Positions 12,001 through 51,412 of a stretch of 64,000 nt of DNA are shown here, one piece after another. Origin of the DNA: a virus (Duplodnaviria > Caudoviricetes); the IMG/VR virus record IMGVR_UViG_3300035498_000654, positions 18,703-82,702 of that record; one strand, 5' to 3'. Under the pieces are notes generated by a model. It did no database searches, was not told where the DNA came from, and was given only the letters and a program-made list of their open reading frames with translations. A program made the translations under genes and the position numbers. Every line of letters begins with the position of its first letter. The stretch's first letter is position 1.

Positions 12001-13236
12001 ATGCTAAGAGCAGTTAAAATAAGATTATATCCTAACAAAACACAAGAAGTTCAAATTAACAAACTTCTTGGTTGTTGTCGTGTTGTTTATAATCAATGTC
12101 TTGCTCGAAAAATAGAATCTTATAACAAAGAGAATAAAACTGAAAACTTATCGTCTTTAAGTAAGTGGTTTCATCATGATTTGATTAATAATCCAGATTT
12201 TATTTGGTTGAAAGAACAAAACACAAATGTTCTTCAACAATCAATAATGGATATGTTGAATGCTTATAAACGATTCTTTACATTGCATACAGGCTATCCA
12301 AAGTTTAAATCAAAACACGATAATAAACAATCTTGTAGATTTACAATAAATGCTATTTCAAAAAGAAATAACTACCTATCTTATAAATTATCACTTGCAA
12401 ATATAAGAGATATTAAATTTAGATGTAATAAACTATATTCAAAGTACCTTCAAGATAACAAGTCAAATATAAAGTCTGCAACTTTAAGCAAGTTGCCATG
12501 TGGTTAGTATTACTTATCAATCTTAGTTGATGGTTGTTTATTACATAAAGTTAAAGATACTGATAAAATAATTGGCTTTGACCTTGGAGTTAAAAACTTT
12601 ATTACTACATCAGAAGGTAATGTTTTTGAAAACTTACATTTTAAAAAATCAGAATACAAGAAAATTAAGAAACTTCAAAGACAGCTTTCCAAAAAGAAAG
12701 TTGGTTCTAACAACAGAAACAAAGCAAGGATTAAACTTGCAAAAGTATATAAAGTCATAACAGATCGTAAATCAAACTATTTGCATAAGGTGTCTAATTC
12801 ATTAATTGATGAAAATCAAGTCATTTGTATGGAGGACTTAAATGTAAAAGGAATGATTAAAAATCACAGACTTTCAGATTCAATATCTGAAATGAATTTT
12901 GGAGAATTCAGAAGAATACTTGAATACAAGAGTTTATGGTATAATAGAAAGTTAGTTTTTATAGATAGATTTTATCCTTCATCTAAGAGATGCAATCATT
13001 GTGGTTATATTAATAAATCACTTAAATTGCCAGATAGACAATGGACTTGCCCAGACTGCGGATCTATCATTGATAGAGACTATAATGCATCACTTAATAT
13101 CTTAGAAGAAGGCCAAAGAATAATAGGTTGCAGTACAACCAAATTTAAGCTTGTGGACTATCCAACTATGGATGACAAGGAAGTAATTCCCCTAAAAAGT
13201 AGTGATAGGTTGAAGCAAGAAGTTAAAAATGAATAA
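12001..13236 (+). CDS. tnpB: TnpB RNA-guided endonuclease (411 aa; one TAG at 12505-12507 read as Gln)
   Basis: HTH start MLRAVKIRLYPN, RuvC FDLG/MEDL/DRDYNA, CxxC..CPxCG Zn finger; the frame is continuous across the TAG. Confidence 0.9.
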
Positions 13237-13265
13237 ACTTAAATTTATTTAAATTTTAATATACT
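13119..13265 (+). ncRNA. Predicted omega-RNA scaffold/right end of tnpB copy 1
   Basis: Shares ataataggttgcagtac..gtggactatcc..cctaaaaagt..ttttaatatac with the other copies. Confidence 0.55.
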
Positions 13266-13271
13266 TTCATA

Positions 13272-13796
13272 ATGAAGACAATAGTCATTAATTTAATATC
13301 AGGACCATGTGCTGGTAAATCAACTGCAGCTGCTGGTATATTTTCTGCATTAAAAAAACAAGGCATAGAATGTGAATTAGCATTGGAATATGCAAAAGAT
13401 TGTGTATGGGACGAATCTTTCTATAAAATGAAAGATTAGGTTTATATATTCGGACATCAATTTCATAGGATATGGAGAATAAATGGTAAAGTTCAGGTTA
13501 TTATAACAGATTCTCCTATATTGCTTAGCTTAATGTATAATCAATTAATAGAACCAGAAATATTTGAAAAATTTATATTGGAATGTTTTAACAAATTTAA
13601 TAATAAAGTTTACTTCATAGAACGAAATGAAGTTATTGAATTTAACGATAATGGACGAGCACATACAAAAGAAGAATCGATTGCTATAGATAACCAAATT
13701 AAAGAATTATTAAATAAACATAATATAGAATATAAGACGGTTAAAAATAACGAATCTGTTGATTTAATAGTTAAAGAAACATTGGAAAATTTATAA
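13272..13796 (+). CDS. P-loop kinase/ATPase (NadR/AAA_28-like), 174 aa with one TAG
   Basis: INLISGPCAGKST Walker A, ALEYAKD, KD*VYIFG (family DQ.YIF pattern), IITDSPILLS. Confidence 0.75.
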
Positions 13797-13842
13797 TATA
13801 AAAAGGATTGAATAATTGAATATTCAATCCTTAATATTTTTA

Positions 13843-15189
13843 TTAATTTAATGCTTTTTTTATTATATTTAATTTTTTATGATCAAAAAATTGAAATGTT
13901 AATATATCTGAATAATGAAATATCGGATCTTCTGGGAAAATATTATTCTAATCTATATCATTTTTAGTATATCCTCTTACAATATATCTATTATAATCAA
14001 ATTCATCATTATCATGTTGATCTGTAATAACATCAGCATACATAATTAAAAATTTATTATTATCATTATTATAACATATAGCAAAGGGCGTATTATCTGG
14101 TATATAATGAAATGCATCATATGTTATTTCAAAAAAGTCATCTTCATGTGCTGCTACATTATTAAAATCTATAATATTATATAAATTTTTAATAGACTTA
14201 TCACTTGATACACCATCAATTAAGCTATGTAAATAATAAAATGATATATTTTGTTTTTTAAACATCTCTGTATAATCCTATTTAAATGTACCATCTTTTA
14301 TACTCTCTATACAATCGTTAAGACTATAATGCTTTACAGATTTTGGTAATTCTGTTGGTTCTTCATATTTAAATGCATCATAAAAATTGATACCAATTAA
14401 TTTTGAAATTTGTTCTTCATCCATCATATGTTCATTACCACCATATGAATGATTCCATCTTGATGTACATGATACGAGCTAATTTTGTGGATTAATCATA
14501 ACGCATATTAATGATAATCCATAAGTATCATATGGCGTATTATTTTCCACTTTTTTAGGTATATCTTCAAAATCTTCATGCATTATAAAGAATACATTAT
14601 ATTTGTTATTTGCTGTATATGTATTCCAAGATATACATGCCTGATTATATGAGCTATTTGCAATACACCAATCACAATAATCACCCACCAAATTATTAGC
14701 CATCTATGGATCTGTTATTCTTACAACTTTATAATTATCATTTGGTTTGGTATATTTTGTATGACATATTTTATATTGTTTATTATTTAAATATGTATGA
14801 TAATCATCATTAATGTCATCTAATAATTGTTCATATGATAAACCATTAAAATTTCTATCATAATTATCATATTTAAATTGTATTATAAAATTTAATATTG
14901 GACCAAATTTTATCTAAAAATTATGGTCGTTAAGATCACTGTCCTTGTCATTTATTAATAAACGTGTTGTTCCTTCAATAAATTTACCACCTGTTTTTGT
15001 TCTTAATATTGGAAACAATGATCTAATATCATCAATTATATCAACTGGATTAGCTTCAGGATATTTCTATTTCACAATCTTTTTAGCAGCACTTATTGAT
15101 TTAGATTCTTGTGATTCATTCAGAAAACATACATTATCAATGCTTTCCTTTATTATATTTTTTATTATATACTCAAGTTCTTTATTCAT
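13843..15189 (-). CDS. 448-aa hypothetical protein (6 in-frame TAG; joins listed ORFs 14479-14703 and 13948-14265)
   Basis: Manual translation MNKELEYIIKNIIKESIDNVCFLNESQESKSISAAKK..DWCIANS..TSRWNH is open to TAA at 13843 under code 15. Confidence 0.7.
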
Positions 15190-15233
15190 ATCATATTTAT
15201 TTTTATAAATAATTCAAATAAAATTTTTAACAT

Positions 15234-15850
15234 ATGTCTTGCAAAATAAAGAAACATAATAAAAATAATGTTAATGAATCTAATTATGTTAATAATATTA
15301 ATGAAAAGGCAGATTTTCAATTTAAATAGATTTTTAATAATTTTAAAGTAACCAAGGATGCCAAAATCCGAACTGCCCATGTAAAAATAATAAAAATCTT
15401 ATTAAACCATATCAATTAGACTTTCACCATATTATACCAAGAGCATTAACAAAACAAGATATATGTCAAATAAAAAATGAATCAAATGAAAATAAACAGA
15501 AGGTTTTAAATCAAAAAATGCTATCAGATTTAGTCAACAGCGGCGATACATATAGAGCAGTATATGAATTAGATCGAACAATGTTATTATGTTGCTTATG
15601 TCATAAAGAATTAGAATATACTACATCACACAGATATATAACTAAAGATCCATATTATGGAATACAAATATCTTCATTAACAGATGAATTTATTAAATTT
15701 TTAGGAATAGCATATGGAGACAATATTCAAAAATAGTATATAGATGAGGTTGAAAAATACCGTTAGAAATATGGAAATATAAACAAATTATATAATCAAA
15801 ATATGAAAAATACTAATAATTTAGACAATATAGATACAAGTATAAATTAA
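15234..15850 (+). pseudogene. HNH endonuclease, apparently frameshifted near 15345
   Basis: GCQNPNC..LDFHHIIP..LLCCLCHKE HNH pattern; the upstream ATG frame is offset by one base at ttttaaagtaac; two downstream TAGs read through. Confidence 0.45.
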
Positions 15851-15899
15851 AAGGATACTAATTAATTTTAGTATCCTTTATATTTTTATAATAAAAATT

Positions 15900-17072
15900 T
15901 TAATATTGTCGCATTGCTCTAATATGATAATCACTGTAGTGTTTATTTGCACCACCGCCATCTACTCTGCCATTACCAATACCAATACCAAATGCTTGAC
16001 CTGCTGAATACTATGTGGAAGCCCAATAGTTATTATTAATAATAAGAGTATCAATCCAATTGAAATTTGTGTTTTTAAGCATATATAGTGTTTGCTGGAT
16101 AGTATACCATCTTGATAAGAGATAACATAATTCACCAATAGCAGGCAAATACCAGTCATTACTATAATCTGTATAATATTCAATACATGCCTTTGCTGCC
16201 GGAAAATTATTTATATCATTAATTATCATTATATCAGTATTTGTTTTTCCATCAATATCACAGATTGGATTTAATTCATCATTATCATTTTTATATTTAA
16301 ACATCTAAGTATTTTTTAATAATAATGAACCATCTTCTGTATAATCATATAAAATAACAGTTCCTGGATTTGTGCCAGGTGCCCAAAGTTTAATACTAAG
16401 TATATTACCTTCAATAGGATCTTTTAATTGACCAGGCATAACATCGTATCCGTTAGATGATGTTTGGAATGTATTATTATTTAATGAATTTTCATAATCA
16501 GTATTAAATCCGACCTCGCACATAATTCGAGCCCATTTAAAAGTTGCTGTATAATTTTCTGAAAATTTATTATGATCTAATATATACTATTTTTCACTAT
16601 TATCATCTGAAACATTTGCATCTGTCATTGGTAACTACGTGTAGCATGTTAAATCATCGCATAATGTATCAGTGGATTGATACATATATGTATTATCTGA
16701 TTGTTTTAATGAAATCCATCTTGCTTTACCATTATCAGTATGGCAAGCAGGAATAACACATACACCATCAGGAACTAAATTATCATCCCAACTATCAAAC
16801 TTAGTATAGTCATGTACAACTCCTTCGCTGTCAGTATAAGTATGCTTTACATGTACAACTTCCCAATCTTTAGTTGATTTATTCCAGCATAACACATCAC
16901 CTACCCAAGCTGCTGATCCAGTGGACTTTACGAAAACTGTTTTTTTTTGTGAATCTTTACCTATCATACTATCTGTATCATCTACTAAAGATACATAAGC
17001 TGGCAAAGACTTTAAATCTAAAAAATCTGTGATATAGTCATTCTATGTACTATATCTCCTTAAATATTTCAT
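15900..17072 (-). CDS. DUF1566/C-type-lectin-fold protein A (390 aa, 5 in-frame TAG)
   Basis: Four listed ORFs join in frame through TAG; C-terminus DGKTNT..AAKAC..DWYLPAIGEL..YWAST*YS..HIRAMRQY. Confidence 0.7.
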
Positions 17073-17174
17073 TTCGGTTATTAATAAAGTTTTATTATTT
17101 ATTTGTATATACATAAAAAATGGATAACCTTTTAGAGTTATCCATTTCATTATTTTTAAATATTATATATCATT

Positions 17175-18336
17175 TTAAAACATCTTAAATGCCCTTGCAA
17201 ATGTATCACCCTAATTTTCATTACGAACCATACGATTATATAATGTATTTAATTTCATAAATGTCGAGTCATTTGTTTGGGTTGATGTCCAATAATAAAC
17301 ATCATTATTTATATTAATACAAGTAACATCATCATAATGGTTCGATAACAAATAAAGAGATCTTTGTATCTCATATAATCTTGTCGTTAGATATACTAAT
17401 TCACCAATATCTGGCAAGTACCATTCAACATTAGGATTATAATTATGAGTCTCAGATTGATAGTTATGAGCTTCAATAACAGCAAATTTTATCTGGCTGG
17501 AATAAACATCTATATTATCCATTATTGCTTTAGTATTAGATAAACCATTAAAAGTATGTAATATTGTAGGATTACCATCACTATTAAAAAATGCTAATCT
17601 ATTTTTACCATATAAATCAGATGTATATACAAAAGGTATTGTATTATCACCATCATTACCACTAACAATACCATCATCAGGATTTGAATCGTGTGCAACA
17701 TGTCCTACTATATTGTCAGGATAACCTTGTATATGTATAAGTTCATATGTTCCAAATGCATTGTAATATTGTAAATCTTGCATTATCTCATCAAATATCG
17801 AATCATTTGTATAAAGTGTTGTTGGCACGCAAAAATTCACATCACTTGTATAATCATTTATTGTATTTAAAAATATATTATTATTTTCATCATATATCAT
17901 AGTAGATAACGAATTTTCAGGATTATATATAGTACATCCATTAACATCGCCCATGTTCGGATATAATAAAACACTGTTTTCTACGCAATCTTTCAAAGCT
18001 ATCCACCTTGCTTTACCATCTGGTGTATGACAAGCTGGAATAACACATACAGAATCAGGAATTAAATTATCTGGAAATGTCCAATCATCTTCATCATATG
18101 TTGTATAATCTTTAACATGATGAATATACCAATCATTTGCATCTGTATCCCAGAATAGAATATCACCAACCCATGCATTACTGCTCGCAGTCTTATAATA
18201 TGCTGTCGGTTTTACAGATCCCCCCTATTAATGAATCTTCATCATCACAATAGTGAACATAAGTATCTAAACCTTGATAATTAGGAAAATCTGATGCTAA
18301 GTCACTCTATGATTTATATCTTTTTATATATTTCAT
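17175..18336 (-). pseudogene. DUF1566/C-type-lectin-fold protein B, paralog of A, with a +1 frameshift at a G6 tract (18220-18225)
   Basis: N-terminus aligns with A (WVGD.L.W..DW..H; PD.VCVIPACHT.GKARWI.LK); C-terminus EWYLPDIGEL..YWTSTQ..ARAFKMF; the start (18336) and body (17996) are out of frame by one base. Confidence 0.6.
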
Positions 18337-18442
18337 ATTAATAGTTTAAATTTTTAATTAAAATATTTATTAAAATATAAAAAGAATGGATACAATAAAT
18401 TTATTATATCCATTCTATATAGATTTGTATTATTTAATTTTA

Positions 18443-19945: not shown

Positions 19946-20032
19946 TACTTAAATATTTTAAATATTTTAAATTATTTATATAAATCAATAAATTATAAAT
20001 AAGTTAAAGTTGAAAATATATTTTTGTTTATC

Positions 20033-21232: not shown

Positions 21233-21387
21233 TCAGTATAATAAAAATTCTTAACATATATTATTTTGTTTTCAAATCAGGTTATTTTAAATTAATTTTT
21301 TAATAACCTGATTTTCTTTTTACAATGATTTTTTATATACAATAAATAATTTAAAATTTGAAATATAAACGTTTAGTTAATACAAAT

Positions 21388-31500: not shown

Positions 31501-32120
31501 GAAATATATTTAAAATCAGTAAAATCTACATGATTCTCAATATCATCTTTTAATGAATTGAATACACCAGGACGATATGTTAATAATAAAACATTTTTAT
31601 ATCCAAGTGTTTTAACCGCTTGTAAAAATGTAAAATTCTTTCCGAATCTCATTTTTGCTGCTAATAAAAATTCACCATTATTATTTTTAAAATATTCAAC
31701 AATTTTATCATGAGCAGCTTGTTGAGGTTTACGCATTTTATATGCATTTAATCTACGGCTACCATATAAAAATTCATGCAGTAATGCTTTCGGAATATCT
31801 GGATTTTCAAATTCAAACCATTCACGATCTGCATCTTCTCTATACTTTAAATAACCTTTATTATGTTCCAAAAAATCATGGAATTTCTTATCAACGTGTT
31901 CAACATCTGTCATAAAATCATCAGGAACACTTTCACACCAAACTAATACATTTGGCTCAGAATTAGATTCTTTATCCTGTTGTTTTATACGAATCAAAGC
32001 CGAATCTTTCATAGATTCAGCTTCTATACCAGTATCGCCAATCTTATAAATTGGATTTTTTCCTAATTGTGTACGATAACTATTTAATTCTTTATGCTGA
32101 TAACAATATATGGTTCTCAT
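28551..32120 (-). CDS. Restriction-modification-like fusion: T5orf172/GIY-YIG-like nuclease, SF2 (ResIII) helicase, Eco57I-type methyltransferase
   Basis: IYKIGDT..REWFEF; LAAKMRFGKN, TDECHYG, ISGTPF, QAMFRGQS; VQNPPY, IIEPATWL. Confidence 0.75.
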   Translation of the reverse strand: MRTIYCYQHKELNSYRTQLGKNPIYKIGDTGIEAESMKDSALIRIKQQDKESNSEPNVLVWCESVPDDFMTDVEHVDKKFHDFLEHNKGYLKYREDADREWFEFENPDIPKALLHEFLYGSRRLNAYKMRKPQQAAHDKIVEYFKNNNGEFLLAAKMRFGKNFTFLQAVKTLGYKNVLLLTYRPGVFNSLKDDIENHVDFTDFKYISFSDNKDKLTLSDNNVNIVTCSVQMAGYRYNDETNDFEKDNNTTNKLFKKNLKTLASYKWDLIVTDECHYGTTTENFNSICNTLKCSKILYISGTPFKQINEFKDNNLFTYTYLDEQDAEDYKMPKLRQYAIKMDSKLIDYYHKNIEMVDYPNMKKLFQADANGDFKYGDISKQTIKFIIDKLNNTNNGEFKHGLALMDYKDSVKAIVKFINDTYKNIHAIDGSNDIVNVDKLKEIIKRNDNKGIKTITFSCGRFIEGVTISEWNTVIMLQDGASPERYFQAMFRGQSPAEGKEDFYVFDYNPERMLSLNYGFISQLSKCKKSYKNIDKEVIIKEWLKAAPIIRWDDQLSDQQFVEVNYRDIENAYFKNDKIGASKFCDSSLYNLYHNINITQSEIKDITSCLDKSFNGKILNKDPKSVSVNDNGISGAKNRVSVISVNSDNTQFNKPDNKNNKKYSISELVALVKNHMHYISRYIVIYNCQNTSDIIKTLEDNIDNNQLIFERSTGITNYQVFKIIIDKHIIKEDEFNYSISQLWEELNKVSNMDANTKYATYKRWNLFNYRAIPQSICDNIINDIDSSIFKNKNIKICDLTIENDYIINILIDKFMDGLSNDILDRKERNNYILNNIIYACTTSDITKRIITKICNIKNIYSCQVKNKNIEYIDNMPKFDYIVQNPPYSGTLHIDFFNKGLDLLNKNGKMIIIEPATWLVNIRKNGNAKTIYEPLKNRIKNHVSKIIVDNYTKEFNIRIFAGLSITNIDLSKEYDTIDYSICGYKQKVNSVYDCNLIGEYNTIWSILNKLLSYKDMVSDHLYKKDNIILNDQKYLQYNFIGVPLITARSHGNRFDELFSKYYYRLCGYSDVLDELPKNKNGDEIKYLIQGTKEELENYKHLVYNTNLPIFLSYVLTIDQNNNVLPFIPWLVDKKYTTEEIYKLFKFTDDEISLIEKTCKKYSIESVFAKRMYDGPSSEITDDEVKDYIDNL

Positions 32121-32126
32121 AGTATA

Positions 32127-33380
32127 TTAAAATATGAACAAAACTTGTTTACTTTTAATTTCTTGCTTCATTCTATCACTACTTTTTAGGTTCATTTCTG
32201 AACGATCATCCATAGTTGGATAGTCCACAAGCTTAAATTCGGCTGTACTGCAACCTATTATTCTTTGGCCTTCTTCTAAAATATTTAATGCGGCATTGTA
32301 GTCTCTATCTATGATAGAACCGCAATCAGGACAAGTCCATTGTCTATCACTTAATTTAAGTGACTTATTAATAAAACCACAATGATTGCATCTTTTAGAG
32401 GAAGGATAGTATCTGTCGATAAAAACTAATCGTCTATTATACCATAGACTTTTGTATTCAAGTATTCTTCTAAATTTACCAAAATTCATTTCAGATATTG
32501 AATCTGAAAGCTTATGGTTTTTAACCATTCCTTTTACATTTAAGTCCTCCATACAAATGACTTGATTTTCATCAATTAATAAATTAGACACCTTATGCAA
32601 ATAGTTTGATTTACGATCTGTTATGACTTTATATACTTTCGCAAGTTTAATTCTTGCTTTGTTTCTATTATTGGATCCAACTTTCTTTTTGGAAAGCTGT
32701 CTTTGTAACTTCTTTATTTTCTTATACTCAGATTTCTTAAAGTGCAGATTTTCAAAGACTTCTCCTTCTGATGTTGTAATAAAATTCTTAACACCCAGAT
32801 CAATACCAATTATACTGTTAGTATTTTTGACTTTATGTAATAAGCCACCATCAACTAAAATTGATAGATAATACTCACCACAAGGTAGCTTACTTAAAGT
32901 TGCTGACTTTATATTAAGTTTGTTATCTTGAAGATATTTTGAGTATAATTTGCTACATTTAAATTTAATATCTCTTATGTTTGCAAGAGACAATCTATAT
33001 GATAGATAGTTATTACGTTTAGAAATGGCATTTATTGTAAATCTACAAGATTGTTTATTATCATGCTTTGATTTAAACTTTGGATAACCATTATGTTGGA
33101 TAAAGAACCTTTTATAAGCATTCAACATATCCATTATTGATTGTTGAAGAACATTTGTATTTTGTTCTTTCAGCCATATAAATTCTGGATTATTAATTAA
33201 ATCATGATGAAACCAATAACTAAGAGAAGTTAAATTTTCTGTTTTCTTTTCAGCTTTATAAAATTCAATTTTACGAGCAAGACATTGATTATAAACAAAA
33301 CGACAACAACCAAGAAGTTTGTTAATTTGAACTTCTTGAGTCTTATTTGGATATAATCTTATTTTTATTGCTCTTAGCAT
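32127..33380 (-). CDS. tnpB: TnpB RNA-guided endonuclease
   Basis: HTH, GIDLG/MEDL/DRDYNAA RuvC triad, Zn finger; right end ttttaatatact abuts the ATG of the R-M gene. Confidence 0.92.
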   Translation of the reverse strand: MLRAIKIRLYPNKTQEVQINKLLGCCRFVYNQCLARKIEFYKAEKKTENLTSLSYWFHHDLINNPEFIWLKEQNTNVLQQSIMDMLNAYKRFFIQHNGYPKFKSKHDNKQSCRFTINAISKRNNYLSYRLSLANIRDIKFKCSKLYSKYLQDNKLNIKSATLSKLPCGEYYLSILVDGGLLHKVKNTNSIIGIDLGVKNFITTSEGEVFENLHFKKSEYKKIKKLQRQLSKKKVGSNNRNKARIKLAKVYKVITDRKSNYLHKVSNLLIDENQVICMEDLNVKGMVKNHKLSDSISEMNFGKFRRILEYKSLWYNRRLVFIDRYYPSSKRCNHCGFINKSLKLSDRQWTCPDCGSIIDRDYNAALNILEEGQRIIGCSTAEFKLVDYPTMDDRSEMNLKSSDRMKQEIKSKQVLFIF

Positions 33381-33444
33381 TGTTTTTATCTTGTTATTTT
33401 ATAAAAATGTCCAGAATATTATTCAACTATTTCCTATACCAAAA

Positions 33445-35486: not shown

Positions 35487-35925
35487 AATGTTAAACTTTA
35501 CTAAAGAGTAGTTAAACTTTGTTAAATAATAGACTTTTTGAATATATTAGTTAGACAACCAAAACTATATTATTTCAATATTAATCAAATAGTTAATTAT
35601 AATTTGAATAATTTTAATTGTTAAACTATGTTAAAGGCTCTCTAAAAAGTTTAGACAAATGTCGTTTTTTCTTGCTATAAGAGCTTGTAGGTTTTTTAAA
35701 AAAAGGAAAATATATTATTAAACTATATATAGGGTGAGAAAAATGATAGAAAATTAGTGAGGACAGACCCGAGAAAATTTAGGAGAATAAAAGAAACTAT
35801 AGGGATAGAAAATTAGTGAGGATAGTCCCGAGAAAATTTAGATATAAGAATGAGACTAAAGAAATAAAAAATAAAGAAACTATAGAGATAGGAAAATAGT
35901 AAAGATAGTCCTCGAAAATTTTAAA
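35487..35925 (+). repeat. Left arm of large non-coding inverted repeat (~250-bp core plus three iteron-like units)
   Basis: Reverse complement of 39120-39616; includes a 63-bp exact match (35675-35737 vs 39366-39428) and a 53-bp exact match. Confidence 0.85.
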
Positions 35926-40105: not shown

Positions 40106-40120
40106 TGTTTCTATAAAAAT

Positions 40121-40522: not shown

Positions 40523-40663
40523 AATCTTAAACTTTTATTAAATTAATACTATAATTAATGTGAGATTTTATCACGCCACAAAGGTAAGTAAAATATTTGA
40601 AACTTAAAAATATTTCTTCCTAAAAATTCGATTAAATATTTAAATTTATGTTTTCATTTAAAA

Positions 40664-41224: not shown

Positions 41225-41257
41225 TATTATAAAAATATAAATTTCTCAATACGAATT

Positions 41258-41713: not shown

Positions 41714-41781
41714 TTAATTTATATTTTGCTATATCGGAGATTATACTTAACTTTGTACTGTTAAAATTAAAAACAACAAAT

Positions 41782-42240: not shown

Positions 42241-42248
42241 AAAATCTA

Positions 42249-43463
42249 ATGTTTCGAACAATAAAAATAAGGTTATATCCTAACAAAACACAAGAAGTTC
42301 AGATCAATAAACTTCTTGGTTGTTATCGTGTTGTCTATAATCAATGTCTTGCTCGAAAAATTGAATCTTATAACAAAGAGAAGAAAACTGAAAACTTATC
42401 TTCTTTAAGTAAATGGTTTCATCATGATTTGATTAATAACCCAGATTTTATATGGTTGAAAGAACAAAACACTAAAGTTCTTAAACAATCCATAATGGAT
42501 ATGTTAAATGCTTATAAAAATTTCTTTGAACGCCATATTGGTTATCCAAAGTTTAAATCAAAGCATGATAATAAGCAATCTTGTAGATTTGAAATAGCAA
42601 GTATATCTAAATGTAATAACTACCTATCTTATAGATTATCACTTGCAAATATAAGAGATATTAAATTTAAATGTAGTAAGTTATATTCAAAATATCTTCA
42701 GGATAATAAGCCAAATATAAAGTCGGCGACTTTAAGTAAACTACCATGTGGTGAGTATTACTTATCACTCTTAGTTGACGGTTGTCTAACTCATAAAGTC
42801 AAAGACACAAACAACATGGTTGGTATAGATCTTGGTATTAAGAATTTTATTATAACATCAAATGGAAATGTTTTTGAAAACCAACACTTTAAGAAATCAG
42901 AATATAAGAAAATAAAGAAGTTACAAAGACAACTTTCTAAGAAAGTTAAAGGCTCTAACAACAGAAATAAAGCAAGGATCAAACTTGCAAAAGTATATAA
43001 AACTATAACTGATTGTAAATCAAACTATTTACATAAAATATCCAATATACTAATTGATGAAAACCAAGTCATTTGTATGGAGGACTTAAATGTAAAAGGA
43101 ATGCTTAAGAATCATAAGCTTGCTGATTCAATATCAGAAATGAATTTTAGAGAATTTAGAAGAATATTGCAGTATAAAAGTTTGTGGTATAATAGACGAT
43201 TAGTCTTTATAGATAGATATTATCCTTCATCTAAGAGATGCAATCATTGTGGTTATATTAATAAGTCACTTAAATTGTCAGATAGACAATGGACTTGTCC
43301 TGACTGTGGTTCTATCATAGATAGAGATTATAATGCTGCATTGAATATTTTAGAAGAAGGACAAAGAATAATAAGTTGTAATGTAAATCCTATCTACATG
43401 GATAAACATTCAGAAATGAACCTAAAAAGTAGCTGTAGATTGAAGCAAGTAGTTAAAAACTGA
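42249..43463 (+). CDS. tnpB: TnpB RNA-guided endonuclease with shortened/diverged omega-RNA region
   Basis: GIDLG/MEDL/DRDYNAA, Zn finger; ATG 8 nt after the previous stop; 3' region lacks the gcagtac..gtggactatcc segment present in other copies. Confidence 0.92.
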   Translation: MFRTIKIRLYPNKTQEVQINKLLGCYRVVYNQCLARKIESYNKEKKTENLSSLSKWFHHDLINNPDFIWLKEQNTKVLKQSIMDMLNAYKNFFERHIGYPKFKSKHDNKQSCRFEIASISKCNNYLSYRLSLANIRDIKFKCSKLYSKYLQDNKPNIKSATLSKLPCGEYYLSLLVDGCLTHKVKDTNNMVGIDLGIKNFIITSNGNVFENQHFKKSEYKKIKKLQRQLSKKVKGSNNRNKARIKLAKVYKTITDCKSNYLHKISNILIDENQVICMEDLNVKGMLKNHKLADSISEMNFREFRRILQYKSLWYNRRLVFIDRYYPSSKRCNHCGYINKSLKLSDRQWTCPDCGSIIDRDYNAALNILEEGQRIISCNVNPIYMDKHSEMNLKSSCRLKQVVKN

Positions 43464-43580
43464 ACACACTTAACTTTGTTCAGATTTTAATATAATATTA
43501 ATTAAAAAATATTATATAGACAATTTTATTATTAATGCTATAATAAAATGTAAGTGAATACAAGAGTACATTGACTAAAT

Positions 43581-43664
43581 GGGGGATTGGCGTAATCGGT
43601 AGCCGCGACATGCTTAAACCGTGTTGTTCAATTGAACGTATGGGTTCAAGTCCCATATCCCCTA
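43581..43664 (+). tRNA. trnL: tRNA-Leu(TAA)
   Basis: Acceptor gggggat/atcccct, anticodon stem acatg/cgtgt with loop CT-TAA-AC, long variable arm, T-loop ttcaagt. Confidence 0.9.
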
Positions 43665-43693
43665 CAATTAATACTTTATAAGTATATTTAAAA

Positions 43694-43840
43694 AATAATA
43701 GGTTGCAGTACAACCGAATTTACGCTTGTGGACTATCCTCTTATGGATGACCGTTCAGAAATGAACCTAAAAAGTAATGATAGGATGAATCAAGAAATTA
43801 AAAATGAATAAATCTAATTTTGTTCAGATTTTAATATACT
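43694..43840 (+). ncRNA. Stand-alone TnpB omega-RNA scaffold/right end without a tnpB ORF
   Basis: Near-copy of the last ~145 nt of tnpB copies 1, 2 and 4 (aataataggttgcagtac..ttgttcagattttaatatact); no upstream tnpB sequence. Confidence 0.7.
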
Positions 43841-43927
43841 GTAGAGAGTATATACGAACAACCTAAGTCATTGATTATGATATGGTTATGACATAGTCCA
43901 AGCTGTAGTAGGCAAAACTATAGTAAG
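43841..43927 (+). other. 3' half of a group I intron (P7-P8-P9-omega G)
   Basis: gtagagagtatatacg (R-like), aacc/ggtt P8, atgac-atagtcc (S-like), P9 hairpin ctgtagt/actatag, terminal G directly before the tRNA exon. Confidence 0.65.
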
Positions 43928-43977
43928 AAAATCTCTTGGCCATTGCGGCTGTGCGGGTTCGAGTCCCGCTGGCGGTA
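43928..43977 (+). pseudogene. 3' exon of a tRNA-Leu (anticodon probably TAA); 5' exon not found in window
   Basis: aaaa-tctct anticodon 3' strand, long variable arm, gcggg-ttcgagt-cccgc T-arm, acceptor strand tggcggt-a. Confidence 0.7.
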
Positions 43978-43991
43978 CTAATAGCAAGAAT

Positions 43992-44030
43992 TTAAAATCT
44001 GAACAATAATTAGAATTGTTCAGATTTTAA
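43992..44030. repeat. Isolated 15-bp perfect hairpin derived from the TnpB right end
   Basis: ttaaaatctgaacaa-taattagaa-ttgttcagattttaa followed by tatac. Confidence 0.7.
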
Positions 44031-44070
44031 TATACAAATATTTTATTATTAACTAAATTGAAAATATAAT

Positions 44071-45159
44071 ATGTCAATGAATAATGTAGAATTTAATTAT
44101 TTTCAAATAATTGGCAATAGAATAATAAATGATTGGAAACTTCCAATCTCTATTGGTTCAGTGAAAGATCTGAATCAATTTTTCTATTTTAATACTTTTA
44201 AAAAATTTTTGGCATATACCAATAATCTTGATAGATGGATGACATTAATTCAAAATAGTAGTAATGCATACACATCTCCAGAAGATTTTGCAAATGATTA
44301 TTATGAATATCGTAATATAATTATTAATGGTATAAAAAATAGTGAATCATATCAAGCATTTAATAATGATGATATGACACAATTTATTGTTAAATCAAAT
44401 TATTCATTACCAAAGAGATCTAACATTTATAATAATGATGTTAATTTAAATTTATATTATATTTCAATTGATCTAAAGGCTGCTAATTTTACAGCACTTC
44501 GATTTTATAATCCTAATATATTTGGTATATTTGATAATGGTATACCAGTAAAAACATACGAGGATTTAATTAAGTTTTATATTCCAGATAATAAAGAAGT
44601 TCTTCAGAATTATTTTAAACAATCTAAATATGATAGACAAGTTATATTTGGACAACTTAATCCTCGTAGACATATTGCTGTTGAAACATATATAATTAAA
44701 TCATTATTGAATAATTTATGGGATGTTATTAAAAATCATACAGATTTCAATAGTATTGAATGTATAAATTCAGATGAGATTATTCTTTCATATAATACAT
44801 TACAGAAAGAATCTACGATTGCTGATATAAACAAAGTTATTATTGATTTTTGTAAAGAGAATATTGGAAATATAACACCAGATTGTTTTAAAGTAACAGA
44901 ATATAAATTAAAACATTATATTGTTAATAATACAGATACACAAGCAAAATGTTTTGATTTTTATCATAAGTATTTTATGTATCCTACAGATAATTCTTCA
45001 TTAACAGATGAAGATTTGTTTAAATGTATACCTAAACAATATTTCTGCTTAATAACAGCATTATTTAATGGAAAGCCTGTTGAAGAATGGATGAAGAAAA
45101 TATATGTTAATAATATGGAATTTATATTGGATTCTGCATTAGAGATAATTGACGTTTAA
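44071..45159 (+). CDS. Hypothetical protein with possible polymerase palm-like motifs
   Basis: SIDLKAANF and INSDEII resemble motifs A and C; weak evidence. Confidence 0.55.
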   Translation: MSMNNVEFNYFQIIGNRIINDWKLPISIGSVKDLNQFFYFNTFKKFLAYTNNLDRWMTLIQNSSNAYTSPEDFANDYYEYRNIIINGIKNSESYQAFNNDDMTQFIVKSNYSLPKRSNIYNNDVNLNLYYISIDLKAANFTALRFYNPNIFGIFDNGIPVKTYEDLIKFYIPDNKEVLQNYFKQSKYDRQVIFGQLNPRRHIAVETYIIKSLLNNLWDVIKNHTDFNSIECINSDEIILSYNTLQKESTIADINKVIIDFCKENIGNITPDCFKVTEYKLKHYIVNNTDTQAKCFDFYHKYFMYPTDNSSLTDEDLFKCIPKQYFCLITALFNGKPVEEWMKKIYVNNMEFILDSALEIIDV

Positions 45160-45177
45160 AAATAAAAAGACACTATC

Positions 45178-46893
45178 ATGGAAGAAAATAAAATATTAAC
45201 AATGTCAGAAAATGGAAAGTCTGAATATTGCTGTAATGTAATTCAAATAGGTACACTGGAACCTATTGAAGGATCAGATTTTCTTGCAAAAACACATATT
45301 AATGGTGAATCTATTGTAGTACGTAAGGATCAGATATTTGAGGGTGAATATTATCTTTATGCATCTAATGAATGTGCATTAAATGAAAAATTTTTAAGTG
45401 CAAATAACTTGTATGAACTTGGTGAAGCCTCACGTAACAGTAATGCAGATGAAGTTGTACCTGTTATCGAACATGCTGCCAAATATAAAAAACGTATTGA
45501 AGCCATTGATAATAAAAATAAAAAATTATCAAAAGCTCGTAGATTATTTGAAGCAAAACAAGATGTAGAGAATAATTATAATAAAGGCGTTAAAATATTA
45601 AAAGAATTTAAACATGACAGTTATAAGAATGCAGATGAGTATATTAATTATATATTGAATGCAATAGCTGATAATAATAATGATAAAAATGAATTAACAA
45701 AAGAACGTGAAAGTCTTTTGAATTCATTAAAATCAAAGGTTGGATTCTTTAATAAACATGGTCGTGTTCGTTGTATTAAGCTCAAAGGTACACCTTCATA
45801 TGGTTTTATTTTTAGTTTGAATGAACTTGCTAAAGTATATCCAGATGTTATTAATTTAAAATTGGAAGAACATCTTGGTGAAGATTTTGATACTGTATAT
45901 GGTGAATTATTTGTTAAGGCATATGTACCTCCTATAAAACCTGTTAAAGAACGTATACAAGATTCTGGTAAAAATCTTTCTAAGAGAGCAGACCGATTTG
46001 ATCGTATGGTACCAGGAGAATTCAAATTTCATTATGATACCCAACCACTTGGTAAGAATATGTGGAAATTTGAACCTGATGATATTGTTATTATTGATAA
46101 TAAGATCCATGGTTCACAAGCATGTTTCTCTAATATAAAGACCAAATATCCTAATAAATTGAATATCTTTAAAAAAGTTATAAATGTAATTTATAAACTT
46201 TTTAAGAAAGAAGAAAAGTATCCAACTTATCATATAGATTACGGATTTGTATATTCATCTCGTAAGGTGATTAAAAATAAGGATATTAATCCTAATCAAA
46301 AACAGGGATATTACAGTTCTGATATATGGGGGCATTGGGCAGAAATAATTAAAGAATATGTTCCTAAAGATTGGTCTATATATGGTGAAATATATGGATA
46401 TACACCAGATGGTTCATATATTCAAAAAGATTATGATTACGGTTGTAAACCAGGCGAATCTAAATTTACACCATATCGTATTTCAATTCATGATCCTGAA
46501 ACTGATGAGTGGAAAGAAATGAATAAGGAAGATGTTTATAACTGGACAGTAGATTTATTGAATAACCATCCTGAGTTACATAATAAATTGGTTCCTGTTG
46601 ATATATTCTATCATGGACGATTTAGAGATCTTTATCCTAATATAAAGGTTAATAATGAATGGCATGATAAAGTATTATATGCAATGCAAGCAGATACTGA
46701 AAACTTTGGTATGGAATTAATGGAGCCTTTATGTGTAAATGTTGTACCTCGTGAAGGTTTGATTATCCGTAAAGATAATGATAAAGTACCAGAAGCATTT
46801 AAGTTGAAAACTGATGCATTTAAAGCAAAGGAAAGACAGCAAATTGATGAAGGTATTGTAGACAGCGAAACTCTTGAAGGCTATAATAGTTGA
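45178..46893 (+). CDS. RNA ligase, DRB0094 (Rnl5-like) family
   Basis: N-terminal OB-like domain (IEPIEGSDF, RVRCIKLKGTPSYG); nucleotidyltransferase motifs KIHGSQ, IYGEIYG, REGLIIR, FKLK. Confidence 0.8.
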   Translation: MEENKILTMSENGKSEYCCNVIQIGTLEPIEGSDFLAKTHINGESIVVRKDQIFEGEYYLYASNECALNEKFLSANNLYELGEASRNSNADEVVPVIEHAAKYKKRIEAIDNKNKKLSKARRLFEAKQDVENNYNKGVKILKEFKHDSYKNADEYINYILNAIADNNNDKNELTKERESLLNSLKSKVGFFNKHGRVRCIKLKGTPSYGFIFSLNELAKVYPDVINLKLEEHLGEDFDTVYGELFVKAYVPPIKPVKERIQDSGKNLSKRADRFDRMVPGEFKFHYDTQPLGKNMWKFEPDDIVIIDNKIHGSQACFSNIKTKYPNKLNIFKKVINVIYKLFKKEEKYPTYHIDYGFVYSSRKVIKNKDINPNQKQGYYSSDIWGHWAEIIKEYVPKDWSIYGEIYGYTPDGSYIQKDYDYGCKPGESKFTPYRISIHDPETDEWKEMNKEDVYNWTVDLLNNHPELHNKLVPVDIFYHGRFRDLYPNIKVNNEWHDKVLYAMQADTENFGMELMEPLCVNVVPREGLIIRKDNDKVPEAFKLKTDAFKAKERQQIDEGIVDSETLEGYNS

Positions 46894-47088
46894 ATAGTTG
46901 AACAATAAAATCTCCTATGAAGATATTAAATATTTCATTTTAGTTAATTTTTATTTTAAATTTTTTAGTTTAGTTGTGTTATACATTGTCTATTGTGAAA
47001 TAGGCAATGTTTTTATTTTTAATTATATTTGATTTCTAATATGATATAAATACAATAAACTTTAATAAAAGTAATTTTATATTTTATA

Positions 47089-49263
47089 ATGAAATCAACT
47101 TTGACATTCAATACAAGCGCCTATGTTCGCAATAAAGGAACAAAGGGTGATTTTAATAAATTGAGAGATATGCTTACTGAATCACATTGTGTGGTAACTG
47201 GTGAGCGTCAATCAAATGGTGATGTTTACATGGTTGTTAATGGTAATATTAATGAAAAGAAATTTGCTAAATTAGCAGGAAAATGTAAACTATATGAAGC
47301 AGAAGATTATCTCCTTGATGATGACGAGCTTCCTATTAATCTTGAAGATGACGATTATGACTATGATGAAGATGATGATCTTGAATCATTGTTAAATGAT
47401 GATACTGATGAAGATGCAGATCTTGATGCTGAAGATTTTTCTGAATATGATGCAGAAGAAGATCCTGATATTTTCGATGAAGAGTTTAATGATGATGTAG
47501 AAGAAGATTTTTCATTCGACTTATATGATGATTATTGCGATAGTTGTGCTGATGATTATTGTGATGATGATTATGATTGTGATTTTGATGAAAAATTCTT
47601 TGATCAAGATTACATGGATGATAGCTATGATGATGAACTTGCTGATGAATATATTGAAGATGATGATATTGACGAATGCTTGAATGAAGCACTTAATGTT
47701 AATATGCGTCAGATTGAAAAATGTAATCGTAAGAAATTAATTGAGTCTAAACTTGCTGCTCATAGAATGCGCTCCAAAAAATTAATGGAAAGCAAACGTG
47801 CAGATATTAGACGTAAATGTAAACTTAATGAGCATAAACGTTTGGTTAATGGTAAATTGACACCAATGGATAAAGCACTCAATGAAAAGAAACGTGGTTG
47901 CTGCCCTCCTAAGAAAGACAAAATGGTTTCTTTGGCAGAAGCAATGAAAGCATTTAAACCTGAAGACCAAAAGAAACTTGATAAAGCAGTTTCATCAATC
48001 GAAGATGTTGTACGTTCAGTAAAGGGTCAAACTATTGGCGCTGCTGAAGTAGCTGCAGCAATGAAGAAACTCAAAGCTCAGCAATTACAGCTTAAGAAAA
48101 TTGCTAAAGATAAGAAAGAGAATTTTAAAGTAACTGATGTTAAGGGTGTAAGTGGTATCATTAAGAAAATGATTGAAGCTGATCCTGATAAAGCTGAAGA
48201 AATTAAGAAATTCCGTGATTCTTTGACAGAATCTGTTGTTACTGCAATTAATAATAAGAAAAAAGTTCTCCATGAAAATGTTGCTATTGATGGTGTTGCT
48301 ATGAGCAAAATCAAATCATCTAAACTTCAAAGTATGTTGAAAGAAGCTGTAGATGCTAAAAAGAAATATAGCAAAACAATCCGTAATGCAAATGGTGATA
48401 ACGCACTTATTGAAAAATGCAAAAAGATAATCAGCAATAAGAATAAACTTATTGGTATTCTTTCTGAAGAATTATCATATCGTAAGATGGTTGCTAAATT
48501 TGGTAAATCATTATTCGAGTCAGATGATAAAGAGGAAAAGAAAGAAAAGAAAACATCTGATGCTGCTGATATGAGTGATGACGATCTTGCAGCACTTATG
48601 GGTGGTTCATTTGATGATGCTGACGGTGATGCAGATGATAAAGATGATAAGAAAGATGACGCAACTGAAGGTGATGAAGAAGTTGATTTAGCACGTGTTG
48701 TAATCGAACTTAAAGATAAAGAATCTGCAGATGAGTTGAAAGACCTTTGTGTTGAGGCTGGTATTCCTGAAGATGCTATTGATATTGAAGAGGATACAGA
48801 CGAAGACGAAAATGATGAAGAGTCTGATGACACAGAATCAGATGAAGATACTGAAGAGAAATCAAATGATGCAAATGAATCAATTCATTATGCAAATATC
48901 AGAAAATTGTTTGAAGCCGATGATGACACAGAAGATGCAGAATCCGATGATAAAGAAGATGACGGTGAGACAGACCAGACTGATGATAGCCAAGATGAAG
49001 CATCAACAGAATCTACTGTTAAATTCGTATTGACTGATACTGATTATATTGATGAACTTGCACAGGTTCTTGATGATGAATATGGTATTTCAAAAGATGA
49101 ATTTGAAGAGATGATTGGTGGTGAAATCATTAAAGATGAAGACGATGAAGACGACTCTGATGAGGATTCTGATGATGATAAAGATGATAAGAAAGATGAT
49201 AAAGAAGATGAAGATGACGATACAGAAGAGATTTCTGCAGATGACATTTTCGGAAATATGTAA
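47089..49263 (+). CDS. Highly acidic prohead scaffold/core-like protein
   Basis: Alternating D/E-rich and basic blocks, more than ten [LI]-x-E motifs, TATAAATA at 47045. Confidence 0.65.
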   Translation: MKSTLTFNTSAYVRNKGTKGDFNKLRDMLTESHCVVTGERQSNGDVYMVVNGNINEKKFAKLAGKCKLYEAEDYLLDDDELPINLEDDDYDYDEDDDLESLLNDDTDEDADLDAEDFSEYDAEEDPDIFDEEFNDDVEEDFSFDLYDDYCDSCADDYCDDDYDCDFDEKFFDQDYMDDSYDDELADEYIEDDDIDECLNEALNVNMRQIEKCNRKKLIESKLAAHRMRSKKLMESKRADIRRKCKLNEHKRLVNGKLTPMDKALNEKKRGCCPPKKDKMVSLAEAMKAFKPEDQKKLDKAVSSIEDVVRSVKGQTIGAAEVAAAMKKLKAQQLQLKKIAKDKKENFKVTDVKGVSGIIKKMIEADPDKAEEIKKFRDSLTESVVTAINNKKKVLHENVAIDGVAMSKIKSSKLQSMLKEAVDAKKKYSKTIRNANGDNALIEKCKKIISNKNKLIGILSEELSYRKMVAKFGKSLFESDDKEEKKEKKTSDAADMSDDDLAALMGGSFDDADGDADDKDDKKDDATEGDEEVDLARVVIELKDKESADELKDLCVEAGIPEDAIDIEEDTDEDENDEESDDTESDEDTEEKSNDANESIHYANIRKLFEADDDTEDAESDDKEDDGETDQTDDSQDEASTESTVKFVLTDTDYIDELAQVLDDEYGISKDEFEEMIGGEIIKDEDDEDDSDEDSDDDKDDKKDDKEDEDDDTEEISADDIFGNM

Positions 49264-49423
49264 TTAATTAACCAATAACAATAATAAATAATCATGATGA
49301 GAGATTTTTAATTTTTGGATGAAAATAAATTCATGATGGTGTTGAAATCAGGTGGTTCGTGAGAATAGCCTGATTTTTTTATACTTATATCAGTAAATAC
49401 TAAAAACAACTTTAATCTTTAAT

Positions 49424-49810
49424 ATGATCTTGCAAATTGATAAAATATCATTAAGGGAAGCAATGAATAATGATAATGGACGTACATCATCTAAGAAGCT
49501 TATTGGTTTTTTAGCATCTATTGTATGTTTAGTATTATTAATAGCATTGATTATTTTTTATTTCTTCCATACAGGTGACGCAACTGTTATATTATAGTTT
49601 GTGGATAAATTAATAGTTATATTTGGTATTGCTGCTGGTTTATTAGGTGTAAAATCTATTGCAAATGCAATAAGTAATAGATATATACAAACACCAACAT
49701 ATGTACAATAGGTTGCATAGAAAGTAGTCACCACTAATATTGATGATGATTCTGATGATTCAGAAGAAGAAACATCTACAACAACAGTATCATCAGAAAC
49801 TGAAGCTTAA
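49424..49810 (+). CDS. Putative holin (128 aa, two TM helices, 3 in-frame TAG; absent from ORF track)
   Basis: Manual translation ..NGRTSSKKLIGFLASIVCLVLLIALIIFYFF..IL*FVDKLIVIFGIAAGLLGVKS.. is open to TAA at 49810. Confidence 0.6.
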
Positions 49811-49924
49811 TATTTGTTAATTAGACATTTTATTAAAATTGACTATAATTTTATAAGGTTATCAATAGGTGATTAAAATTTTGATCATTATTATAAATCT
49901 TATATAATTATTTTATTAATTATT

Positions 49925-51166
49925 ATGTTTCGATCAATCAAAATAAGATTATATCCAAATAGCAATCAAGAAGTTCAAATTAATAAACTTCTTGGTTGTT
50001 ATCGTGCGGTTTATAATCAATGTCTTGCTCGAAAGATTGAATCTTATAAAACAAAGAAGAAAACAGAAAATCTAACTTCACTTGGTCATTGGTTTCATCA
50101 TGATTTGATTAATAATCCAGATTTTATATGGTTAAAGGAACAAAACACTAAGGTTCTTAAACAATCCATAATAGATATGTTAAGTGCATATAAACGGTTC
50201 TTTACATTGCATACAGGTTATCCAAAGTTTAAATCAAAACATGATAATAAACAATCTTGTAGATTTGAAATAGCAAGTATATCTAAACGTAATAACTATC
50301 TATCATATAAATTATCACTTGCTAACATTAAGAATATTAAGTTTAAATGTAGTAAATCATATTCAAAATACCTTCAAGATAACAAGTCAAATATAAAGTC
50401 AGCAACTTTAAGTAAACTGCCATGTGGTGAATACTACCTATCAATTTTGATTGATGGTTCTTTATTACATAAAGTTAAAGATACTGATAAAATGATTGGT
50501 ATTGATCTTGGGGTTAAAGACTTTGTTATCACCTCAAATGGTGAAGTTTTCAAAAACCGACACTTTAAGAAATCAGAATACAATAAAATCAAAAAGTTAA
50601 ATAAACAACTTTCTAAAAAGAAAGTTGGATCTAACAATAGAAACAAAGCAAGGATTAAGCTTGCAAAAGTATATAAGAAGATAACTGACAGAAAATCAAA
50701 CTATTTGCATAAAGTAAGTAATTCATTAATTGACGAAAACCAAGTCATTTGTATGGAGGACTTAAATGTGAAGAGCATGATTAAAAACCATAGACTCGCT
50801 GATTCAATATCTGAATTAAACTTTGGTGAGTTTAGAAGAATACTTGAATACAAGAGTTTATGGTATAATAGAAAGTTAGTTTTTATAGATAGATTTTATC
50901 CTTCATCTAAGAGATGCAATCAATGTGGTTATATTAATAAGACACTTAAGTTATCTGATAGACAATGGACTTGCCCAGAATGTGGTTCTATTATAGAACG
51001 TGACTATAATGCATCATTAAATATATTAGAAGAAGGACAAAGAATAATAGGTTGCAGTACAGCCGAATTTACGCTCGTGGACTATCCAACTATGGATGAC
51101 AAGGAAGTAATTCCCCTAAAAAGTAGTGGTAGAATGAAGCAAGAAGTTAAAAGTGAACAATTCTAA
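49925..51166 (+). CDS. tnpB: TnpB RNA-guided endonuclease
   Basis: GIDLG/MEDL/ERDYNA, Zn finger, full omega-RNA region with right-end hairpin to ~51190. Confidence 0.92.
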   Translation: MFRSIKIRLYPNSNQEVQINKLLGCYRAVYNQCLARKIESYKTKKKTENLTSLGHWFHHDLINNPDFIWLKEQNTKVLKQSIIDMLSAYKRFFTLHTGYPKFKSKHDNKQSCRFEIASISKRNNYLSYKLSLANIKNIKFKCSKSYSKYLQDNKSNIKSATLSKLPCGEYYLSILIDGSLLHKVKDTDKMIGIDLGVKDFVITSNGEVFKNRHFKKSEYNKIKKLNKQLSKKKVGSNNRNKARIKLAKVYKKITDRKSNYLHKVSNSLIDENQVICMEDLNVKSMIKNHRLADSISELNFGEFRRILEYKSLWYNRKLVFIDRFYPSSKRCNQCGYINKTLKLSDRQWTCPECGSIIERDYNASLNILEEGQRIIGCSTAEFTLVDYPTMDDKEVIPLKSSGRMKQEVKSEQF

Positions 51167-51412
51167 TTATTGTTCAGATTTTAATATACTGTAGTATAAC
51201 TACTAACTTATCGATTATTTTCACGATGGTTAAAATAAAAATTTTGCGAGGTGTACTACACCGAATAATCCGGTGGTTGACTAATAAAAAACCTCCGGAA
51301 CAAAAGCCAGAGATTGATAAAGATAAAACACCAGAAATAAAAGTAATTTCTTGTAAAGTGAAATCTATATCAACAAAATCAAAAATTTAAAAATATTTGA
51401 ATAACATCCAAA

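Follow-up and report, generated by a model that had tools for sequence, protein, structure and literature searches.

The 64,000-nucleotide stretch of DNA analysed here (hereafter the window), which spans bases 18703–82702 of the 82.7-kb IMG/VR virus fragment IMGVR_UViG_3300035498_000654, is part of a Lak-like megaphage fragment and carries four tnpB genes, named c1 to c4 in what follows. These genes belong securely to a family of TnpB nucleases and omega-RNAs that is derived from IS605, lacks tnpA and is specific to huge phages. As to how the family spreads, RNA-guided homing is the best single mechanism, plausible but unproven. TnpB is the ancestor of Cas12 and ranks among the commonest genes of prokaryotes, and many of its copies persist without tnpA; in the huge-phage clade examined here, strong selection maintains both the nuclease and its guide RNA although complete genomes contain no transposase. 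The elements and their parts are as follows (TAM, target-adjacent motif; aa, amino acids).

11944–13267, plus strand: element c1, inferred left end from 11944, behind TTCGGT
12001–13236, plus strand: tnpB of c1, 411 aa, one in-frame TAG at 12505–12507
about 13124–13267, plus strand: omega-RNA scaffold of c1; putative guide from 13268, ATG of the next gene at 13272
32119–33437, minus strand: element c2, left end from 33437, preceded by TTTGGT and having a type I left-end motif in degenerate form
33380–32127, minus strand: tnpB of c2, 417 aa
about 32257–32119, minus strand: omega-RNA scaffold of c2; ATG of the next gene at 32120–32118
42241–43498, plus strand: element c3, no left end, its own scaffold degenerate, terminus ATATAATAT at 43498
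42249–43463, plus strand: tnpB of c3, 404 aa
49860–51192, plus strand: element c4, TAM-like flank AAGGT at 49855–49859, left end 49860–49924
49925–51166, plus strand: tnpB of c4, 413 aa
about 51048–51192, plus strand: omega-RNA scaffold of c4; putative guide 51193–51212

The tnpB genes and their RNA

All four open reading frames (ORFs) contain the Pfam domains HTH_OrfB_IS605 (PF12323), OrfB_IS605 (PF01385) and Cas12f1-like_TNB (PF07282), arranged in the order expected of TnpB (HTH/WED-REC, split RuvC and zinc ribbon or TNB). The RuvC triad D194/E278/D360 is invariant across them, its residues sitting in the motifs GxDLG, ME(D)L and RDxNA of the alignment with TnpB structures. Residues 4–377 of c4 align with the solved ISDra2 TnpB (PDB 8bf8/8exa/8h1j) at an E value of 2e-60, and the same protein scores 294 bits against the NCBIfam model guided_TnpB (cut-off 100), 353 bits against IS200_TnpB and 163 bits against IS607_TnpB. 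Membership of the IS607 family was considered and rejected on the latter two scores and on the absence of PF00239 from the 82.7-kb record. The original prediction, made from the letters of the window, had proposed four full-length tnpB genes with a D-E-D triad, which is confirmed; its term 'nuclease-intact' applies outright to c2, c3 and c4, whereas c1 is intact only in a recoded reading because of its in-frame TAG, a codon that is GAG in the other three copies. The same source had called the four copies diverged, but their mutual identity (85–90% in protein, 82–86% in nucleotides) makes them only moderately so.

The recoding concerns the phage as a whole. TAG is read as a sense codon in the window phage, since a suppressor tRNA with the matching anticodon is encoded there and many broken ORFs of the window merge once TAG is read as Gln.

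54064–54138, plus strand: suppressor tRNA, anticodon CTA (tRNA-CUA), by which TAG is read as a sense codon

A phage-encoded transfer-messenger RNA lies near this tRNA, at 54705–55073, and the genes containing TAG are clustered in some blocks of the window, whereas other blocks, among them three of the four tnpB genes, have none. The G+C content of the window is about 27%, and a CheckV completeness of about 15% for the record implies a genome of roughly 550 kb. In megablast against the phage collection, the sole matches were tnpB elements of Prevotella Lak megaphages, and the earlier guess that the DNA comes from a megaphage therefore holds.

Pairwise comparison of c1–c4 over codons 1–370 gives a synonymous divergence (dS) of 0.67–0.80 and a ratio of nonsynonymous to synonymous divergence (dN/dS) of 0.07–0.12. 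In the last ~40 codons of c1, c2 and c4, which overlap the scaffold, dS drops to 0.12–0.22 and dN rises, a signature of constraint on the RNA. Hence, to judge from these substitution patterns, the copies appear to be old paralogues that have been kept functional, neither a recent burst nor relics. The tnpB genes of a second Lak subfamily ('subfamily 2') have 8–17 in-frame TAG codons with catalytic motifs intact, which indicates that the clade has long evolved inside recoded phages.

At the right end, DNA homology among the copies runs to TTTTAATATA(C/A) plus 3 nt and then ceases, in agreement with the convergence of 3' ends noted before. For 31 copies, taken from the window and from other phages and each represented by its terminal ~150 nt, RNAalifold predicts 30 base pairs, half of which (15 of 30) show compensatory changes; the earlier expectation of conserved omega-RNA ends is thereby borne out. 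The predicted scaffold has a 5' hairpin, three long-range helices and an extended terminal stem formed by GTTAA and TTTTAA, which enclose a GAACAA..TTGTTC hairpin, leaving A(T/C)AC(T/G)GT outside as a 3' tail; the terminus reads ..TTTTAATATAC(T/G)GT. The right-end hairpin is conserved with covariation, and more than 30 independent insertions have this terminus in common and diverge directly past it. According to this structural model, then, the right ends are omega-RNA scaffolds that overlap the 3' end of tnpB. No Rfam family matches the scaffold, while its core shows recognisable homology to the omega-RNA of those IS605 elements in Phocaeicola, Parabacteroides and Bacteroides that have tnpA, an RNA with one stem-loop more. 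The exception within the window is c3, in which an 18-nt deletion removes the first hairpin and the terminus has become ATATAATAT.

The right end of c1 terminates 4 nt ahead of the next ATG and that of c2 overlaps it by 2 nt, its final two bases being the AT of that ATG; the close contact reported previously for these copies is real, but the distances are not the 6 and 0 nt given then. Across the family, the distance from the right end to the next ORF ranges from 4 to more than 360 nt, so constant contact between right end and start codon was discarded as a family rule. Insertion into safe sites in 5' untranslated regions, as first proposed, likewise describes c1, c2 and several Lak copies and not the family at large.

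At the other extremity, c1, c2 and c4 retain a short left end of 57–65 nt, located behind a (G/T)GT flank and beginning with a conserved start (..TAATAG/TATAG..). The view that the copies share no left end and have unrelated upstream sequences consequently has to be abandoned. The left end of c2 is a degenerate form of a motif common to independent Lak and IMG/VR copies, which we call type I, T(A/T)ATAG(C/T)AAA.AAATAATTTGAACAA.ATTG.ACATTTTTATAAAA; the arms recur in the right-end hairpin, an identity found in Lak copies, in the locus L006 and in a mini element of the window (see below). A second variant with the same start is present in c1 and c4 (TATCAATAGG.. / ..CTAATAGT..). The left-end hairpin is not uniform within the window: degenerate in c2, differing in c1 and c4, absent in c3. 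The bases just outside the left ends are TTCGGT (c1), TTTGGT (c2), AAGGT (c4) and GGCGGT (mini element), and this (G/T)GT flank mimics the right-end tail AC(T/G)GT. Such mimicry between left flank and right-end tail is usual in IS200/IS605 elements. From the left-end flanks and three empty sites, N(G/T)GT is the candidate TAM. The left boundary of c4 is independently confirmed by a 47.9-kb relative, G006, which is collinear with window positions 35804–63991 at 82–90% identity and in which homology stops exactly at ..TA(A/G)GGT|.

Transposase genes and empty sites

Neither PF01797 (Y1_Tnp) nor PF00239 (Resolvase) occurs in the 82.7-kb record, which proves little alone, as the record represents about 15% of the genome. 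Additional evidence comes from relatives. No Y1 TnpA is encoded in five complete circular Lak genomes (A1, A2, B2, B8 and C1; 540–552 kb), each with two to four TnpB matches, nor in a complete 363-kb phage with six TnpB. Among 54 loci of at least 47% identity, retrieved by tblastn, not one has a Y1 gene at a distance of 3 kb or less; every locus is on a phage-like contig, and some of these contigs are filed under bacterial metagenome-assembled genomes (MAGs). The 18 further loci that were retrieved by their right-end sequence also lack tnpA. The initial claim of missing TnpA is thus sustained, for the Y1 type, well beyond the record. By comparison, the sister clade (37–41% identity) has a divergently oriented tnpA 45 nt upstream at 15 of 34 phage loci and at 9 of 10 Bacteroidales loci, the latter being classical tnpA plus tnpB elements of IS605 type in Phocaeicola, Parabacteroides and Bacteroides. 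A quick tree unites c1–c4 and a pair of copies located on one further contig in a single clade within the phage clade, with a Shimodaira-Hasegawa-like approximate likelihood ratio (SH-aLRT) support of 100. It follows that new sites have been colonised, something that homing alone cannot accomplish.

The Y1 tnpA genes of the huge phages G003 and G004 were examined as possible partners and rejected, for they belong with a different clade of TnpB and omega-RNA. In Lak-A1 (L188:1253-3256; MK250015, 43.7–45.8 kb), an IS607-family serine transposase contains seven TAG codons, and the 449-aa ORF behind it gives a faint TnpB-like signal only. Phage-type TnpB is found as well on large AT-rich contigs in MAGs assigned to Bacteroidales, Bacilli, Mycoplasmatota and Prevotella sp. 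CAG:1092 (L108-L114), which are probably mis-binned megaphage DNA.

Filled and empty alleles could be aligned for three pairs of Lak sites, in genomes 97–99% identical, and for the sites shared with G006. One Lak copy is present in C1 and missing in A1 and A2; another is present in A1 and missing in C1 and A2; the third is present in B2 and missing in B8, with flanks 99.1–99.5% identical. In this last pair, the first 100 nt past the right end contain eight differences, among them two synonymous changes in the first codons of the following gene, and the 800 nt after that contain none. In general, the differences between filled and empty alleles are concentrated in the first ~30 nt past the right end. 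In the Lak-C1 copy (L091:8470-8514; MK250029, about 211.5 kb), the terminal right-end hairpin has given way to 35 nt matching the sequence at the empty sites of Lak-A1 and A2, an arrangement that gives the downstream gene an in-frame ATG and four codons.

G006 has no TnpB at all, and it is empty at the sites of c3, c4, a tnpB-less solo scaffold and the mini element. In place of c3 (window 42241–43504) it has 97 nt plus a tRNA-Cys(GCA) (G006rc 9038–9201; L186/L187 region), which suggests that the left end of c3 and the tRNA-Cys may have been lost by a deletion that fused tnpB to the upstream stop codon. The ATG of c3 indeed lies 8 nt downstream of the stop of the preceding gene, the coordinates given before having been verified; c3 has no left end, as had been stated, but the comparison points to a deletion rather than to an original lack of room for a hairpin. 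For the tRNA-Cys itself, the window phage has either lost it or never owned it. The ORFs upstream of c3 were tried as parts of the element and dismissed, since they have no homologues at other loci. At the c4 site the left junction is clean, while G006 has 20 extra bases and an inverted flank.

51190–51254, no strand assigned: segment of 62–65 nt beside the c4 right end, inverted in the empty allele of G006 (L157:3787-3851)

This inverted segment adjoins a conserved hairpin, ACACCGAATAATCCGGTG. Clean junctions are seen at the left of c4 (..GGT|), at the left of the Lak-C1 copy and at the right of the solo scaffold (TGTGT|AGAGA in the G006 intron), whose site is uninterrupted in G006 (..AAATGTGT|AGAGAC..). 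More alleles of the window sites were sought through the neighbouring 1189-aa and 470-aa proteins, with nothing useful emerging, through a metagenome protein scan, with no result, and through a 19-mer scan, which returned chance matches only apart from G006.

Mechanism of spread

In mechanistic terms, our preferred reading, held with slightly less than even confidence, is that c1–c4 are non-autonomous, tnpA-less descendants of IS605 that spread by RNA-guided homing or gene drive. TnpB with its omega-RNA would read the 16–20 nt past the right end as a guide and would cut element-free genomes, of the same or of a co-infecting phage, wherever the target stands behind a (G/T)GT TAM; a filled genome would then serve as template for recombinational repair, by which the element would be copied in, a non-restorative form of homing in which the cycle of cutting and copying would itself maintain selection on nuclease and RNA. 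The rare colonisation of a new site could be due to illegitimate recombination or to a transposase provided in trans by the host or by another phage. Homing fits because nuclease and RNA are selected without a transposase, polymorphism occurs at fixed sites and one intron site is recurrently occupied, and also because the allele differences cluster just beyond the right end. TnpB is known to drive the spread of insertion sequences in multicopy plasmids without TnpA (PMC11870625), and homing between co-infecting phages has already been proposed (PMC13565253). Spread by cutting and copying has hence been published for plasmids and proposed for phages; in the elements described here it is plausible, not a demonstrated mechanism. 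We found no paper that describes the TnpB elements of Lak phages.

Several observations weigh against homing. Co-conversion tracts, which had been suggested as its mark, were looked for in the 3-kb flanks of the three Lak pairs and none was seen. The present guides mismatch the sole empty alleles at hand, that of c4 matching G006 only on the opposite strand and with three mismatches. Some junctions are untidy, namely the 62-nt inversion and 20 nt at c4 and the replaced hairpin of Lak-C1, and the copies of Lak subfamily 2 have direct repeats of 8–14 nt, although several of the repeats identified by eye may be chance matches in AT-rich DNA. The left-end start, the TAM-like flank and the arms of identical sequence at left and right ends (TGAACAAT..ATTGT(T/A)CA) resemble substrates of Y1 transposases. 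Three of the five Lak genomes (A1, C1 and B8; not A2 or B2) encode an IS607-type TnpA, which is not adjacent to these tnpB genes, and only about 15% of the window phage genome has been sampled. Finally, the single clade formed by c1–c4 implies spread to new sites, so that the original prediction of homing instead of transposition cannot stand in that exclusive form.

A first alternative is that the elements are ordinary non-autonomous members of IS200/IS605, with a Y1 TnpA acting in trans for all moves and TnpB only restoring the element after excision. The transposase would come from IS605 elements of host Bacteroidales, from another phage or from the unsampled 85% of the genome. The sister clade of Phocaeicola, Parabacteroides and Bacteroides does combine tnpA and tnpB with a homologous omega-RNA, and some huge phages own a Y1 tnpA, albeit beside another TnpB clade; the conserved left-end start with its (G/T)GT flank, mimicked by the right-end AC(T/G)GT, the new-site spread evident from the paralogue clade and the tnpB-less mini elements, which resemble palindrome-associated transposable elements (PATE) and are typical of families mobilised in trans, would all be accounted for. 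We nevertheless regard this explanation as rather unlikely, given that tnpA is missing beside 54 close relatives and from six complete carrier-phage genomes, that copies with a mutual dS of about 0.7 do not look like insertion sequences that transposed recently, and that TAG-rich tnpB genes cannot have shuttled recently through hosts with the standard code. Moreover, the left-end palindromes of c1 and c4 are unlike the right-end hairpins of the same copies, and a left end is absent from c3, although all of these genes are strongly selected.

Long selection on four paralogues could also reflect a domesticated set of nucleases with multiple guides, including extra stand-alone omega-RNAs of which one would be transcribed together with a tRNA, used as a weapon against rival phages (marker exclusion) or against other targets, spread being a by-product. 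The sequence after each right end is different, and an intact solo scaffold lies 34 nt behind a tRNA-Leu with a consensus-like promoter, beside a tnpB whose own scaffold is broken; in IMG/VR, tnpB is likewise missing from about 8 of the 18 loci that have this right end. We consider such a function improbable, since the guides are mere local flanks without a second target in the two genomes at hand, and the solo copies can equally be read as deletion relics, that of the window residing in a broken intron and tRNA. A bolder combination would have a phage-restricted TnpB clade without transposase persist purely by RNA-guided cutting and recombinational copying, with solo omega-RNAs, one released from a tRNA transcript and others carried in group I introns, as trans guides of a multi-guide drive or weapon that operates only in TAG-recoded late infection; this we think unlikely to be right. 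The opposite extreme, that the copies are inert relics doing nothing any more, might be suspected from c3, with its lost left end and degenerate scaffold, and from the frequency of fragments. It is very improbable in view of a dN/dS of about 0.1 over a dS of about 0.7, of synonymous sites constrained in the scaffold overlap, of the intact triad and of RNA pairs maintained by compensatory changes.

Homing, the reading that we prefer, may be set against the systems already described. The likeness to IS200/IS605 TnpB (ISDra2 type, or the tnpB-only IS1341-like elements) is extensive: domain order, RuvC triad and full-length structure match, an omega-RNA that spans the 3' terminus of tnpB and the right end, a subterminal hairpin in that end, a short motif conserved just ahead of the left end on its 5' side, and mini derivatives that lack tnpB. 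In contrast with those elements, the phage clade has no Y1 TnpA in complete carrier genomes, its left end is 57–85 nt long or lost, its scaffold is one stem-loop short of that in the Bacteroidales sister IS605, and it is confined to huge phages, with recoded TAG codons and with copies that are old and diverged instead of near-identical. With the TnpB gene drive (PMC11870625, PMC13565253) and the free-standing homing endonucleases Seg and Mob of T4 it shares a nuclease gene between conserved phage genes, presence/absence polymorphism at the same site, a multicopy replicon proficient in recombination, and changes at the presumed target. The differences are that here we only infer the drive, that co-conversion tracts are not found and that the target would be recognised by RNA, not protein, whereas the action of the T4 enzymes has been shown by experiment. 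The filled and empty alleles in near-identical Lak phages make transposase-independent, RNA-guided homing directly testable, and the clade offers compact, AT-rich pairs of TnpB and omega-RNA with a predicted short TAM.

Solo scaffolds at tRNA and intron loci

Between c3 and c4, the window contains derivatives without tnpB, embedded in the remains of an older tRNA locus.

43581–43665, plus strand: tRNA-Leu(TAA), replacing an older tRNA-Leu
43699–43842, plus strand: solo omega-RNA scaffold, tnpB-less and structurally complete, 34 nt past the tRNA-Leu(TAA), its 3' flank being group I intron sequence
43843–43927, plus strand: intron relic, 85 nt homologous to the 3' part of the G006 group I intron
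43928–43977, plus strand: 3' half of the older tRNA-Leu(TAA), which is intact and intron-less in G006
43977–44038, plus strand: 62-nt mini element, directly behind ..GGCGGT of the old tRNA

The mini element consists of a left-end start (ACTAATAGCAAG..TGAACAAT) fused via a hairpin to the right-end terminus (ATTGTTCAGATTTTAATATACAAA), and another tnpB-less right end lies 7.8 kb upstream of the window. Taken together, positions 43843–43977 (compare L185:13868-14076, minus strand) represent the relic of an intron-containing tRNA-Leu(UAA), comprising the 3' part of the intron and the 3' exon; a 5' exon belonging to the old tRNA-Leu is missing from the entire 82.7-kb record. The homologous group I intron of G006 is located elsewhere than its intact tRNA-Leu, and it matches Rfam RF00028 with 34 bits (E 1e-6), below the gathering score. 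For the window, the identity of the intron rests on homology to that of G006, because its own Rfam match is not significant (11 bits, E 2.4).

The same intron position is occupied in an unrelated 279-kb phage, where it carries a tnpB-less mini element; at locus L199, a tnpB-less scaffold is inserted inside a group I intron at the site of the window solo copy. The tnpB-less loci counted above for IMG/VR are L190-L193, L199, L202, L203 and L206. These arrangements recall IStrons, which combine a group I intron with the TnpB of IS605 or IS607 (PMC10690162): the window scaffold is inside group I intron sequence attached to the 3' exon of a tRNA-Leu(UAA), and the second phage has its mini element at the same intron position. 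The relic in the window differs in having no 5' exon, no 5' half of the intron and no tnpB. In described IStrons the right end falls on the 3' splice site, whereas the window scaffold lies within the intron core.

The case shows how such elements reshape megaphage loci that contain tRNAs and introns. Many relatives are located beside or inside tRNA genes rather than at gene starts, and in huge phages many lie directly 3' of a tRNA gene, behind ..GGGTTATTAAC(A/T)GT| (L017, L030, L043, L045, L021-L041), while some right-end flanks of huge-phage TnpB elements begin with the T-arm of a tRNA.

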